A DNA stretch of 64,000 nt from an uncultured Candidatus Saccharibacteria bacterium (lineage in GTDB: Bacteria > Patescibacteriota > Minisyncoccia > Phycocordibacterales > UBA12088): NCBI GenBank assembly GCA_964567265.1, contig CAZMLK010000001.1, forward strand, positions 164,710 through 228,709. The letters run 5' to 3'. Position 1 is the first letter of the stretch. Every line of letters begins with the position of its first letter. This document shows, piece by piece, positions 8,909-44,198 of this stretch. Both the position numbers and the translations under genes were made by a program. Below the pieces are notes generated by a model. The model searched no databases and was not told the origin of the DNA. It was given only the letters and a program-made list of their open reading frames with translations.

Positions 8909-9439
8909 ATGGCACTTGTGGAGTTTCCGACAGACGTTCTCGTTCGCGCGGTCGCGCTCTCGCTTCCGACGGACGCGCTTATCAGAGCGCGTGACGATTC
9001 GTACTATAAAATCACTCTTGCAAATACGGCAGAAGGATTCGTCAGAACGTTCGGTTGCCGCTTGTCGCACGGAACGGCACAACAGCTTCAACTGCGTGAT
9101 CTTCAAGTGGAGTGGGGCATGTGGGAGTTATTTCCTCGAGTCTCCCGTGCGGTTCTCCGCGAACGAGAGCAAGATTCAGCCATCCTAGAGCTCAGTGAGC
9201 TTTTGGCGATGCCGATCTTCTATAGAAAAGTCGGACGGCGCACCGCGCAGTGTGTCGCAAAAGGAATTTCCGATTCGGCTCTGCGTGCTCGTCCGATGAG
9301 CAAGAGACGAGCGGTGGCGCCACCTCGAAAGGATGAACTGGTCACAAATGCTGTCTACCTATATGAGCGATTCGTTGCCACAAGGCCGCGGCGCCCCGTG
9401 CGCAATCAATGGGGTGCGCAAGAATCTGCATTTCCGTGA
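8909..9439 (+). CDS. Hypothetical protein (176 aa)
   Basis: ORF with plausible spacing; no motif recognised. Confidence 0.4.
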   Translation: MALVEFPTDVLVRAVALSLPTDALIRARDDSYYKITLANTAEGFVRTFGCRLSHGTAQQLQLRDLQVEWGMWELFPRVSRAVLREREQDSAILELSELLAMPIFYRKVGRRTAQCVAKGISDSALRARPMSKRRAVAPPRKDELVTNAVYLYERFVATRPRRPVRNQWGAQESAFP

Positions 9440-9519: not shown

Positions 9520-10713
9520 TTACTTCTTTTCAATCTTCTTCCCAGTGTAGGAGAGCGTCATGCGCTGTTCTCCCGGTTCGAAGAGGGTGATGGTGAATGG
9601 ATAGCTCTTGCCGAGCTCGAGGGTCGCGCGGAGCTCCTCCTCGCTCTTCCACTCGCTGATGTGGACGAGTCCGGCGACACCTTCCTCGATTGAGGCGAGG
9701 GCGCCATGCTTGTTGTACTTGATGATCGCGGCATTCACGACGTCGCCCTTCTTGAACTTCTCCTTGGCCTGGTGCCATGGATTGTCGCGGAGCGCCTTGA
9801 TCGAGAGGGAGATCTTGCCGTCCTTGATCTCGATGATCTTTACCTTCACGTTCTCGCCGATCTTGTACATCGCCTTCGGATTCTCAACGAGACCCCAATC
9901 GATTTCGGAGATATGGACGAGTCCTTCGAGGCCGTTCTCGATCTTCACGAAGATGCCGAAGTCGACAGCACCGGTAACGGTACCCTCGAGGACATCGCCG
10001 ACCTGGTAGCGGTCAACCATGACTTCGCGCGCCTTCTGCTCCAAGCCCTTCTCAGAGAAGATGAGCTTTCCTTCCTTCGGATCGGCAGTAATGATCGAGA
10101 CCGCGAGGCGCTCGCCGACGAGGCGGCGGAGCTCGGAGAGGATCTTCTCCTTATCGCCGTCCTCTACACGCGGATAGTGCTCAGCCTTGAGCTGGGAAGC
10201 CGGAAGGAATCCAACAATGCCCTGCCATTCGATGATAAGGCCGCCCTTGTTCGCATCCTTGACCGGAAGCTCGAAGACCGTCTTGTTATTGATTGCGCTC
10301 TCTGCTTCGCTCCAAATGAGGGCCTGGCGGGCTTCCTTGAGGGAAAGCTCGATGTAGCCGTCCTTGTTCTCAGCATCCACGATCTTCGCGGCGATCGTGT
10401 CGTTCATGTTGACGCGGCGAAGGATATCGCGCGCGTTCAAGTACTCACGGCCGTAGATGATACCGGTGCCGTACGGAGGCAAGTCGACGTAGATCTTGTT
10501 GTGGCCAATGCCAACGACCGGACCTTCGATCAGGTCGCCTGCTTTCGGCTTTTCCGGACTCTTGTCCATGAGCGCCGTCATCGGGCTCTCCGGAAGGACC
10601 GGCAACACTTCGTCCATATCCTCTTCGACCACTGCGGCGCGGACCTTCTTCACTTTTGTTTCTTCCATATGGTGTTTCAACCGGCTCCGGGTGTTGTCCT
10701 CCGTGGCTAGCAA
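9520..10713 (-). CDS. rpsA: 30S ribosomal protein S1 (four S1 domains)
   Basis: Repeated S1 OB-fold motifs (G.V.G.V....G.FV.L..G..GL.H.SE), 397 aa; true start may be a downstream Met. Confidence 0.85.
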   Translation of the reverse strand: MLATEDNTRSRLKHHMEETKVKKVRAAVVEEDMDEVLPVLPESPMTALMDKSPEKPKAGDLIEGPVVGIGHNKIYVDLPPYGTGIIYGREYLNARDILRRVNMNDTIAAKIVDAENKDGYIELSLKEARQALIWSEAESAINNKTVFELPVKDANKGGLIIEWQGIVGFLPASQLKAEHYPRVEDGDKEKILSELRRLVGERLAVSIITADPKEGKLIFSEKGLEQKAREVMVDRYQVGDVLEGTVTGAVDFGIFVKIENGLEGLVHISEIDWGLVENPKAMYKIGENVKVKIIEIKDGKISLSIKALRDNPWHQAKEKFKKGDVVNAAIIKYNKHGALASIEEGVAGLVHISEWKSEEELRATLELGKSYPFTITLFEPGEQRMTLSYTGKKIEKK

Positions 10714-11182
10714 TAAGCGCGGACAAGGGTTACTCCGGGGTCGGGAACTGGTAATAGAATTGCTCGAAATGTATCCGAAAACGACCTTCTTGTCCAGCTG
10801 GGGTCCTTAAAATGACAAACGCCCGATATCCATAGGATTCGGGTCGTTCAGGTGTCCGTGAATCGGACAATTTTTTGGAAAGAACACCTCTTTCGAGGGG
10901 TCGTCGGGACCCGAGGGTCCCGACGGGGCGAGAGGTTTCCTGCGCCGGGCTGTGTCAGTGGCGAAGGGCAAATGCTGGGTTGTCGGTGTCGTCGGCGACG
11001 CGCATTGAGGCCTGGCTGCGCTCGGTCATGGCGGTGAGCTTTGCGGCGTGCGGCGAGTACGACTGCGGTCGATGATGCATCGGAGTCCTCCGACGAGGTG
11101 TGCGTGGAACGGATGTCCCACCACGTATTTGTATCAAATGTTCATGAAGGCTGCAAATGGTTCCAAAGGAAGCTGTGTATAG

Positions 11183-11222
11183 GTAAAAAAGGAAAGGCCC
11201 GGAGCTATGAAGCTCCGGGCCC
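11183..11222 (-). terminator. Strong Rho-independent terminator (minus strand)
   Basis: ggcccggagct-atga-agctccgggcc stem followed on the minus strand by UUUCCUUUUUU. Confidence 0.7.
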
Positions 11223-11507
11223 GTGTCGAGGTATCTAATCTCGACATTTTGACGCTCGCTCGCGTCGTGTTGACTGCCGCTGTGTTGCCCTGTGGCAAAC
11301 CGCAGCAATCGGCTGGAAACATTCGAGGTGCAATCGCCTCGCGTCAACGGCTACGCTACGCGGAGCCTAACGGCCGAGCCGAACCTTCGAAGAGCAGTTT
11401 AGTGACCATGCTCAGGTCTGTCCTCGGCAAACGCAGGCTTTTTGTTCGCTCACCCAGAGGGTGATGCAGAGCCGGCAGATGCCGATCTGGTCGCCGACGG
11501 CCTGGCC

Positions 11508-11603
11508 CTAGCTGGTCGTCAGGGCCGGCGCCGCGCCGATGTCGTGCAGGTTGCCGTCGCCGGAGCCGTCGTCGTGCGGACGCGCGCTGGTCAGGTCGGT
11601 CAT
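11508..11603 (-). CDS. Candidate small peptide gene (31 aa, MTDLTSARPHDDGSGDGNLHDIGAAPALTTS)
   Basis: ATG preceded by AGGAGG about 15 nt upstream, nearly 100% GC3 codons, inside an ORF-poor high-GC segment; speculative. Confidence 0.25.
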   Translation of the reverse strand: MTDLTSARPHDDGSGDGNLHDIGAAPALTTS

Positions 11604-11853
11604 GGTCTGAATCCTGTTCCTCCTGGAGGCCGGACTCAGTCCGGTGGGATCGTGATTCCGCATCGAAGTCTCCCTTCGTGGAACACAGGCGACAATCGCT
11701 GTGCTGGGAATAGTTGTAACAGGCACCACAGACCTTGTCAAGATATTTTAATCATGTCCTAATGCTCGCCAAAAAAAGCTTTCAAATATAGCTTTTCTGT
11801 CGGTTCATGAAAATTTCGTCTGTTTTTCGTTCATCTGCTATACTCAGGGGACT

Positions 11854-12498
11854 ATGGTCATCACCTACCACGGCGGAGAATTCTTCAAAGTCTCCTTCGG
11901 AGACACGACGCTCGCATTCAACCCGATTTCCAAGGATTCCAAGCTGAAGGCAGCCCGTTTTGGTGCTGATATCGCCCTCATCTCCCTCAATCACCCTGAT
12001 TTCAACGGTGCGGACCAGGTCTCCCATGGCGACAAGCAGCCGTTCGTCATCAATGGTCCCGGAGAATACGAAGTCGGCGGGATTTTCGTGAAGGGCTTTG
12101 CGTCGAAGTCAGAATACGGCGGGGAGGAGCGCATCAATACTATTTATCATGTCACCCTGGAGGGCATGAACCTTCTCTTTCTCGGCGCAGCGAACGAGAA
12201 GAAGTTCGGCCAGGAGCTCGGCGAGGCGCTCGAAGTCGTTGATATCCTCTTCTTGCCGATCGGAGGCGAAGGCGTCCTTTCGCCTTCTGACGCCAATGAT
12301 CTCGCGGTCGACCTCGCTCCTCATATCGTGATCCCAATGCACTACACCGGCGCTGCCGGTTCTCTCGGCACCAAGGACGCGCTCCAGGTATTCCTCAAGG
12401 AAGCGGGCGGCAATGGAGCCGGCACTGTCGATAAACTCACCTTGAAAAAGAAGGACTTGGAAGGGAAGGAGGGAGAGATCGTCGTCCTCACGTCATAA
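11854..12498 (+). CDS. MBL-fold metal-dependent hydrolase
   Basis: Beta-lactamase-fold pattern (HxHxDH-like LNHPDFNG, IPMHY), 214 aa. Confidence 0.65.
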   Translation: MVITYHGGEFFKVSFGDTTLAFNPISKDSKLKAARFGADIALISLNHPDFNGADQVSHGDKQPFVINGPGEYEVGGIFVKGFASKSEYGGEERINTIYHVTLEGMNLLFLGAANEKKFGQELGEALEVVDILFLPIGGEGVLSPSDANDLAVDLAPHIVIPMHYTGAAGSLGTKDALQVFLKEAGGNGAGTVDKLTLKKKDLEGKEGEIVVLTS

Positions 12499-43571: not shown

Positions 43572-43873
43572 TATGGTCAATTCTGGACTTAGGCGCAATG
43601 ATGCGCAGAAATGGAAGCACGAGTATGTATCCGTCACCCTTTTTTGTGGAGTGCTTCGGAGCGCTGCTCCGGGCATGTCACCGGTTCGTACCGAGGGCAG
43701 AACACCGTAAGGCCTCGAGGCGTTCGGGAGGCCCCCCGACCAGTTCCGATCATGACAACGGGGATTATCTCAGTCGGGGAAAGCGAGGGTATGCTGCGGG
43801 GCGCGTTGGCACACCTCGCAAAGGTCCCAGAGCGAGCTGCCGGTTGATCGACTAGCAGTCAAAGGAGAATCTC

Positions 43874-44140
43874 GTGACTGATTTTCACCAAGCAGAAGTT
43901 GAGCGCCTGAAGGGGTTCGGTGGCACCGCTCAGGAATCAGGTGCGCATGTCGTGACGGACCTTCAGGAGCGGTTGCGCGCGCTTATACTCGCGGGCAAGA
44001 AGATTCCTGAGGAACTCAAGCACGCCTTCCATCCAAATCGGCTCGCGACGCTTACCGAGGCATATGAGGCGGAACGTGATGCGCCGAAATGCGAGCGATG
44101 CGGGCAGCCGAAGAGCGCTGGCGATTTCGGTTGCAGCTGA
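43874..44140 (+). CDS. Small hypothetical protein (88 aa) with C-terminal CxxC...C motif
   Basis: GTG start with AAAGGAG RBS; CERCGQPKSAGDFGCS. Confidence 0.4.
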   Translation: MTDFHQAEVERLKGFGGTAQESGAHVVTDLQERLRALILAGKKIPEELKHAFHPNRLATLTEAYEAERDAPKCERCGQPKSAGDFGCS

Positions 44141-44198
44141 GATGTGACGAACCCGCCCGGCGCTTTGCGCCGGGCGGGTATCTCTTTTCATATTTTTC

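Follow-up and report, generated by a model that had tools for sequence, protein, structure and literature searches.

What occupies the long gap between the divergent genes rpsA and an MBL-fold hydrolase gene in the genome of an uncultured Candidatus Saccharibacteria bacterium? We addressed this question in a 64,000-nucleotide stretch of contig CAZMLK010000001.1, referred to here as the window. rpsA lies on its minus strand (9520-10668, ATG at 10668) and the hydrolase gene on its plus strand (11854-12498, ATG at 11854), leaving a gap of 1185 nucleotides (nt). An original prediction, made from the sequence alone, had described this gap as free of open reading frames (ORFs) above 130 amino acids (aa), which agrees with the longest mechanically called ORF of 130 aa. 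It had considered a horizontally acquired fragment, a small-peptide locus, possibly for a ribosomally synthesized and post-translationally modified peptide (RiPP), a structured non-coding RNA (ncRNA) or an assembly chimera. Our analysis favours, with moderate confidence, a clade-restricted accessory module in which two small genes lie in tandem on the minus strand and are transcribed independently. Each unit would comprise a strong predicted sigma-70-type promoter, a Shine-Dalgarno (SD) sequence before an ATG, a short ORF (51 and 41 codons, respectively) and an intrinsic terminator. The module itself is a real feature, neither an artefact nor a standard RNA gene, and forms an orphan family restricted to a few closely related species.

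The region was compared with approximately 160 Paceibacteria rpsA–MBL loci and with the additional loci L164-L168 (L-numbers denote related loci). A Logan assembly (L002) was identical to the window across the region, and the exact hydrolase protein was present on independent Logan assemblies. L001, L003 and L164-L166 are strain-level variants of the window. The module also occupies this position in two further species, represented by L004, a GTDB representative whose MBL protein is 78% identical to that of the window, and by L167/L168 (83%). The NCBI contig and several independent Logan assemblies thus agree, and two other species carry the module; this recurrence rules out the assembly chimera.

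Organization of the two units

Both units, T1 and T2, read as monocistronic and lie entirely on the minus strand. T1 starts with a predicted promoter, P1 (11713..11741), read from the sequence as a -35 element TTGACA (11741..11736), a 17-nt spacer and a -10 element TACAAC (11718..11713), with a predicted transcription start near 11706. The pattern TTGACA-17-TAnAAA was kept in L001, L003, L004, L167 and L168. At the transcript start, minimum free energy (MFE) and centroid folds both gave a stem-loop (11684..11704; GCACAGCGA-UUG-UCGCCUGUG), whose sequence and pairing were kept in L001, L003 and L004 and which has a shorter form in L167. Next comes the SD sequence GGGAG (11670..11674). Because this conserved motif sits 6 nt before an upstream in-frame ATG at 11663, we delimit the first small ORF, sORF1, as 51 codons plus stop (11508..11663; MRNHDPTGLSPASRRNRIQTMTDLTSARPHDDGSGDGNLHDIGAAPALTTS).

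These boundaries differ from those of the original prediction, which had placed a 31-codon ORF and a 24-codon ORF on either side of a terminator. Both quoted peptides were found on the minus strand, but they represent only the C-terminal parts of sORF1 and of the 41-codon sORF2 of T2, respectively. The AGGAGG motif proposed for the first of them does not hold up as a ribosome-binding site, as it lies 15 nt before an internal ATG and is not conserved in relatives. Both sORFs had also been called by the gene callers behind the NCBI and Logan assemblies and public collections. sORF1 has conserved ends (codons 1-13 and the last 19) around a variable, allelic middle block, and orthologues of 29-56 aa were found in L001, L003, L164, L167, L168 and L004.

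Between the sORF1 stop and the terminator lies a 3' untranslated region (UTR) of ~285 nt (11223..11507). Its proximal 136 nt (11507..11372) are conserved among strains, its distal part (11371..11246) is a variable allelic block, and a short hairpin (11225..11245) precedes the terminator. The T1 intrinsic terminator was located by a terminator scan at 11185..11222 (GGGCCCGGAGCU-UCAU-AGCUCCGGGCCU then UUCCUUUUUU). It bears out the canonical terminator seen originally, with a G+C-rich stem (11222..11195; 12 pairs, nine of them G-C) followed on the same strand by the T-run TTCCTTTTTT, downstream of sORF1. This terminator was kept in L001, L003 and L164, and analogous terminators stand in the same place in L004, L167 and L168.

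T2 is arranged in the same order. Its predicted promoter, P2 (11128..11156), was read from the sequence as a -35 element TTGCAG (11156..11151), a 17-nt spacer and an extended -10 element TGaTACAAA (11136..11128), and transcription would start near 11121. The sequence TTTGATACAAAT is shared without change by L001 and L004, with CTGATACAAAT in L168. A 5' stem-loop (11100..11124) appeared in both MFE and centroid folds, but it is weakly supported and its sequence varies among strains. sORF2 and its SD sequence span 10955..11091, with GGAGG (11091..11087) 6 nt before the ATG at 11080 and an ORF of 41 codons plus stop (11080..10955; MHHRPQSYSPHAAKLTAMTERSQASMRVADDTDNPAFALRH). The frame was open and preceded by an SD site in all six homologues (41, 41, 42, 64, 57 and 60 aa).

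The T2 3' UTR contains a 9-bp hairpin (10903..10924) with a YUCG/UACG tetraloop (CUCG in the window), followed by ACC..CUCUUUC. All 45 of its 45 alignment cells were paired across five sequences from three species, and five of the nine pairs had changed on both sides. Its covariation score was reached by none of 500 shuffles, and slid controls gave 0-3 double-changed pairs. This hairpin is therefore a proven RNA element. A small hairpin (10887..10898) lies beyond it, followed by another (10853..10869; TGTCCGTGAATCGGACA then ATTTTTTGGA) that was scored as terminator-like on the plus strand; no plus-strand gene lies upstream of the latter, which was kept in L164 and not in L001. The T2 intrinsic terminator, read from the sequence at 10809..10843 (CCCGAAUCC-UAU-GGAUAUCGGG then CGUUUGUCAUUUU), is conserved in L001 and L164 and has equivalents in L004 and L167. 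A promoter scan placed the rpsA promoter after it (10768..10796, minus strand).

The rpsA 5' leader (~10669-10760, minus strand) showed nucleotide-level conservation in the window clade, L004 and L167. A block of ~50-90 nt just upstream of rpsA, distinct from the rpsA promoter, recurred by blastn in many related loci. This block could be an S1 autoregulatory leader; it had no Rfam match.

Constraint on the peptides and on the RNA

Conservation of the translation signals suggests that sORF1 may be a genuine small-protein gene, carried by an mRNA with functional 5' and 3' structures. GGAG was retained 5-8 nt before the ATG in all 12 ORFs compared (both sORFs in six lineages or alleles), even where the surroundings were unalignable. 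Indels measured +15, +12 (a tandem duplication) and +3 nt in sORF1 and +6, -6, -3 and +3 nt in sORF2, in a small sample with uncertain alignment in the variable blocks. Those in the T1 3' region measured 1, 2, 2, 1 and 22 nt, and this region is therefore considered non-coding. GC content at third codon positions (GC3) exceeded that at first and second positions (GC1 and GC2) in the sORF1 homologues (GC1/GC2/GC3 of 0.58/0.58/0.885 in the window); for sORF2, this held only in window-clade alleles and L004.

Over 28 aa, sORF1 of the window and sORF1 of L167 were 54% identical as peptides. Both contain HDDGSG and HDIGAAP[AV]LT, encoded with synonymous differences (GGC/GGG, GCG/GCC and CTG/CTC), and L168 keeps WHDDGSG. 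The parts of sORF1 under selection would thus be its conserved ends together with HDDGSG and HDIGAAPxLT, separated by a length-variable linker. Judging from its sequence, the product is probably a small, acidic, disordered peptide rich in Gly, Asp, His and Ala.

Divergence between the window and L001 was assessed against a baseline of 0.25 at the four-fold sites of rpsA and the MBL gene. Values were far lower in the T1 5' UTR (0.045), the first 13 codons of sORF1 (0.05), its last 19 codons (0.03), the next 136 non-coding nt (0.10), and the terminators and promoters (0.08-0.14). The sORF1 linker, the distal T1 3' region, the T2 5' UTR, all of sORF2 and parts of the T2 3' UTR showed 0.31-0.46 with additional indels; the distal T1 3' region alone had 0.31 and 27 gap columns, and sORF2 0.32 compared with the neutral 0.25. 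The variable blocks thus appear to evolve roughly neutrally.

At the protein level, dN/dS was ~1 for sORF1 overall because of its variable linker, and ~0-0.05 for rpsA and the MBL gene. sORF2 would be translated with a barely constrained sequence. As some of its alleles carry HDAGSGG, it is possibly a degenerate paralogue.

Distribution, base composition and alleles

Divergent rpsA–MBL synteny was kept in most of the ~160 Paceibacteria loci, with gaps ranging from ~100 nt to 3.9 kb, and the site is therefore a variable hotspot. All relatives of the window MBL-fold hydrolase belong to the Patescibacteria (candidate phyla radiation, CPR), of Paceibacteria or "Taylorbacteria" type. All relatives have the hydrolase irrespective of the module, which occurred only where the hydrolase was at least 78% identical; the module was absent from the closest loci examined at ~70% identity and lower. 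Consistent with this, tblastx, blastn and nhmmer searches of the module against the ~160 syntenic loci found homology only in L001-L004 and L164-L168, and a peptide-motif regular expression applied to six-frame translations of L001-L163 matched only within the same clade.

The neighbourhood of the module consists of housekeeping genes only, according to Pfam content over ~10 kb on each side: ftsZ, ftsA, ybeY, an HGTP_anticodon-domain gene (probably an aminoacyl-tRNA synthetase), a signal peptidase gene, pth, rpsA, the MBL hydrolase gene and gyrA. Within the same distance, no maturase, transporter, receptor, reverse transcriptase, integrase, transposase or defence gene (PADLOC) was found, and neither flanking repeats nor a tRNA target was present at the module.

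The only recurrent companion of the module was a gene for a secreted, concanavalin-like LamG-like protein of 226-245 aa (L001:8109-8843(-), L004:4170-4850(-), L167:4110-4847(-) and L168:2048-2785(-)). In L001, a 244-aa gene of this type is inserted downstream of T2, between T2 and the rpsA promoter. In the other three loci it lies upstream of T1, giving the order MBL, LamG-like gene, T1, T2, rpsA. Among L001, L004 and L167/L168, the LamG-like proteins are homologous but share only 31-38% identity, beside MBL identities to the window of ~78-83% and ~92% for rpsA (L004). They gave sub-threshold matches to Pfam Laminin_G models, and a protein search with the L001 protein found no matches. Because this secreted protein is the sole recurrent companion, we suggest, with low confidence, that the module may be part of a rapidly diversifying gene set for the cell surface or host interaction, in which sORF1 could act as a small metal- or protein-binding peptide.

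The base composition was less extreme than first described. The ~70% GC attributed to 10900-11700 was an overstatement: this segment has 61.5% GC, which places it in the top 4% of 800-nt windows at a window mean of 56.7%. GC islands of 0.675-0.695 (200-nt windows) were confined to ~10900-11100 and ~11400-11700, the middle of the gap (11000-11400) had 0.515-0.605, and several coding stretches elsewhere in the window match the islands. Other intergenic gaps of at least 250 nt ranged from 0.465 to 0.598, so the rpsA–MBL gap stands at the upper end and is no outlier. The proposed foreign, actinobacterial-like codon style also fails, because ordinary window genes already have a GC3 of 0.70-0.81, compared with 0.885 for sORF1 and 0.76 for sORF2. 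Another fairly GC-rich gap of the window (43677-44198; 59.8% GC) contains an 88-aa ORF (43874-44179, plus strand), followed by a very strong terminator-like hairpin (44151-44179) of 13 pairs, 12 of them G-C.

The genomes of the two other module-bearing species have only 47-49% GC. In L004, the module had 58.5% GC compared with 46.7% in its flanks, the GC3 of the sORFs was 0.77-0.79 compared with 0.47-0.51 in rpsA, pth and the MBL gene, and L167 and L168 were similar in module composition. The GC excess of the module over its host thus amounted to 5 points in the window and 12 in L004. Because it stays GC-rich in lower-GC relatives, its GC-richness appears to be a persistent property of the module rather than of the host genome, and is modest against the window's 57% GC background. 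Several causes are possible: the composition of the peptides combined with codons ending in G or C, stability of the RNA, GC-biased gene conversion at a recombination hotspot, or foreign origin. If the module encodes small proteins, its GC-richness would come from peptide composition and G/C-ending codons, and may be maintained by GC-biased gene conversion or derive from a foreign source. The atypical composition and patchy distribution used to recognize genomic islands are both found in the module.

As judged by comparison of the loci, the variable blocks are discrete alleles reshuffled by homologous recombination, in one case across species. L003 (1711-2413) joins an L001-type promoter and sORF1 linker to a window-type 3' region, switching inside the conserved C-terminal block of sORF1. 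The flanks of L167 and L168 (the LamG-like gene and P1) are 98% identical, but their T1 bodies differ, and L168 matches L004 at 77% identity in the 3' part of this body. These mosaics indicate recombination within the module. In addition, L164 carries a third sORF2 allele.

Other loci hold different cargo at this hotspot. Unrelated units at the same site and in the same orientation (L010:4215-4745(-), L089:1-420(-), L051:4215-4865(-) and L078:4360-4870(-)) each run for 450-650 nt from a strong promoter to a terminator; the intervening sequence is GC-rich and lacks a conserved ORF. Their fold z-scores ranged from -3.6 to -5.5. L010 and L089, ~75% identical, shared 86 predicted pairs, 13 of them compensatory, compared with 0-3 in slid controls. 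None of these units had an Rfam match or detectable similarity to the window module, and they may be undescribed ncRNAs.

The module might itself belong to an undescribed class of structured RNAs that evolve fast, are GC-rich and strongly expressed, in some cases carry short translated ORFs, and occupy this Paceibacteria hotspot. We regard such a class as distinctly unlikely, and MFE folds gave no convincing common architecture among window T1 and the L004, L010, L051 and L078 elements. If it exists, GC-richness set against genomes of 36-49% GC would reflect selection on RNA structure, and its function might relate to the episymbiotic lifestyle.

Two further observations were made near rpsA. 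In L035 (640-1187) and L036 (4469-5001), the rpsA–MBL gap holds a GC-rich plus-strand ORF for a small membrane-anchored protein of ~80 aa (MSEREKGKSEVSALAVLGGAAIVIGYFGY...); at ~49% GC in a 38% GC genome, this gap is a further case of GC-rich cargo at the hotspot. On the other side of rpsA, the window and L002 have a 176-aa ORF without a Pfam match (8909-9439, plus strand) in the interval that separates pth from rpsA. This ORF is missing from the strain-level relatives L001 and L164, where the pth-rpsA spacing is ~70 nt, and represents a second strain-variable insertion adjoining rpsA.

Alternative readings and comparison with known systems

Relatives outside the clade were also sought. A word-indexed protein search with sORF1 (5.8 billion protein clusters) returned only itself and one allele, and an exhaustive sORF1 profile search of 1.84 billion representatives returned itself and P0126 only. 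P0126 (L173:4001-4441) is a 146-aa membrane-anchored protein with three EHDLTGLSPANLRPIAD / ADWAREHDLTGLSPANLRPIAD repeats, encoded on an actinobacterial-type contig that also carries a BTAD/SARP-type regulator. Its EHDLTGLSPAN resembles NHDPTGLSPAS of sORF1 over a short stretch. We treat this match as chance, since three identical repeats inflate the E-value and each repeat alone scores at chance level. A DNA scan for the leader motif TYCCAGCACAGCGNNTGTCGNYTGTG gave 0 matches in JGI metagenomes and IMG/VR, and a blastn 'distant' search of the module against phages and plasmids gave none. No tandem repeats or TIGR/CRISPR-like arrays were found.

A diversity-generating retroelement and a type I toxin-antitoxin system were considered and rejected. 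For the former, no reverse transcriptase domain was present among the called genes within ~10 kb; the sole repeat with the variable block was 20 nt long and 75% identical, with differences not restricted to adenine, and this copy is deleted in L001. The latter does not fit two hydrophilic, acidic peptides without a transmembrane stretch, in a region where no plus-strand promoter was found. Mobility features of a classical genomic island or mobile element were likewise missing, with no integrase, transposase or flanking repeats and no similarity to the phage, plasmid or IMG/VR collections.

A number of results weigh against the reading of two small-protein genes. The sORF peptides had no matches in Pfam, NCBIfam, PADLOC or PHROGs, nor among 1.84 billion representative proteins. 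Constraint at the protein level was absent from sORF2 (dN/dS ~0.65-0.9), and its cross-species similarity was not significant (E of at least 0.02 against a database of 12 sequences). At 65% GC, chance alone often yields ORFs of 40-60 codons, and ~35% of 41-codon frames would be open. Moreover, the conserved blocks of sORF1 are also conserved at synonymous sites, and conservation extends 136 nt past the stop; constraint at the RNA level therefore exists, and part of the apparent coding conservation could reflect it. Whole transcripts without the terminator also folded better than dinucleotide shuffles, with z-scores of -2.3 (window), -3.8 (L001) and -3.9 (L004). The window itself lacks the LamG-like gene, and the proposed role is a guess from genomic context.

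Several of these results would be expected if T1 and T2 were primarily non-coding or dual-function structured regulatory RNAs, with ORFs that are incidental or serve ribosome loading and with GC selected for RNA structure or stability. We consider this unlikely. It would account for constraint that crosses the sORF1 stop, the transcript z-scores (-1.2 and +0.65 in coding controls), the conserved T1 5' stem-loop, the 3' hairpin with five covarying pairs, and compensatory changes between distal T1 3' alleles (GUCGAG...CUCGAC in the window, GCCGAG...CUCGGC in L001). The 57.5% GC of the L004 non-coding 3' region in a 46.7% GC host, the neutral evolution of sORF2 and the presence in other Paceibacteria of unrelated non-coding units, structured and GC-rich, in this position also point this way. 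However, the sORF1 region folded no better than shuffled sequence (z = +0.83), the window 3' region reached only -1.56, and both strands gave similar scores. The T1 3' region was not conserved in L167, where it differs in sequence and spans ~215 nt rather than the ~285-330 nt found elsewhere. A primarily non-coding role also sits poorly with the retained SD-ATG arrangement, the frame-preserving indels and sORF1 motifs kept across species through synonymous substitutions. Rfam, which had nothing relevant in the L004 module, L010 or 13 related loci, offered no family, and complementary targets or extra copies within the 64-kb window were limited to chance-level 11-12-mers. Structured RNA is thus true only locally, for the T1 5' stem-loop, the covarying 3' hairpin and the terminators.

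The remaining readings are less probable. High-GC DNA acquired horizontally, such as from an actinobacterial host or neighbour, could persist as a functionless, decaying relic whose ORFs are leftovers. This would suit a module GC-richer than its host in three species, confined to a narrow clade at a variable hotspot and evolving neutrally over large parts. The only outside sORF1 profile match, the EHDLTGLSPAN repeat, likewise comes from an actinobacterial-type contig, but it is the repeat-inflated hit discussed above. A relic of this kind is highly unlikely, since purifying selection clearly acts on promoters, SD sites, sORF1 ends, hairpins and terminators (0.03-0.12 compared with the neutral 0.25), which persist across species with saturated synonymous sites (dS>1.7); no donor appeared in the phage, plasmid, IMG/VR or JGI collections, and there is no integrase, tRNA target or flanking repeat. 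Short peptides with conserved flanks and a hypervariable middle, whose alleles are exchanged by recombination, could also be RiPP or secreted signalling-peptide precursors with pherotype-like alleles. Only the small-peptide part of that earlier proposal stands, and we see very little chance for the rest: maturase (within ~10 kb), transporter and receptor genes are missing among the housekeeping neighbours, the adjoining hydrolase occurs with or without the module, and the peptides lack a signal or leader motif, a Cys- or Ser/Thr-rich core and family matches. Finally, an assembly chimera or a missed housekeeping RNA is practically negligible. Independent assemblies contain identical or allelic copies, other species have orthologous modules in the same position, and Rfam gave no match at gathering thresholds or E<=10 in 10600-11900, apart from sub-threshold matches to a terminator hairpin. 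The original prediction had likewise seen no motifs of RNase P, tmRNA or signal recognition particle (SRP) RNA; covariance models for these, 6S and the large ornate RNAs had no match in the region, and only tRNAs were found over the whole window.

The pair of small genes that we favour would be of interest for several reasons. Genomes of Patescibacteria are very small, and a ~1-kb non-housekeeping module kept across species beside rpsA therefore probably has some role. Its peptides make up an orphan family (HDDGSG / HDIGAAPxLT), and its site is a hotspot at which strains recombine discrete alleles, a pattern that elsewhere marks loci for interaction with other cells or phages. It also illustrates that GC-rich, "ORF-poor" gaps can hide real sORF genes, which are mis-delimited by ATG scanning and barely sampled by a protein library of representatives at 50% identity. 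As it stands, it is a lineage-specific gene pair and adds no new mechanism.

The module can be compared with lineage-specific sORF genes and dual-function small RNAs (sRNAs), such as SgrS/SgrT, SR1/SR1P and RNAIII/hld. Like these, it has short monocistronic transcripts with their own promoter and intrinsic terminator, SD-led ORFs of fewer than 60 codons, selected structured untranslated parts and a narrow phylogenetic range. Unlike them, it consists of two tandem units with a GC content well above that of the host and with allelic, recombining blocks, and neither sequence similarity nor Rfam links it to a described example.

A second parallel is offered by polymorphic peptide loci such as those of the agrD and comC pherotype peptides, in which conserved flanks enclose a hypervariable core. 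In the module, too, the ends of the short peptides are conserved and the middle comes in discrete allelic forms that recombination shuffles between strains. It differs in having no adjacent processing, export or sensor genes and no leader or cleavage motif, in that part of its variability is non-coding, and in that the divergence of sORF2 fits neutrality rather than diversifying selection. Compared with variable islets that carry fast-evolving surface or secreted proteins at conserved intergenic hotspots, the module is only ~1 kb long, has no integrase, tRNA attachment site or repeats, and its window copy is without the LamG-like gene. Nevertheless, it resembles these islets in lying between two housekeeping genes whose synteny is class-wide, at a site whose content differs by species and strain, and in that sister lineages pair it with a secreted LamG-like protein that diverges rapidly.

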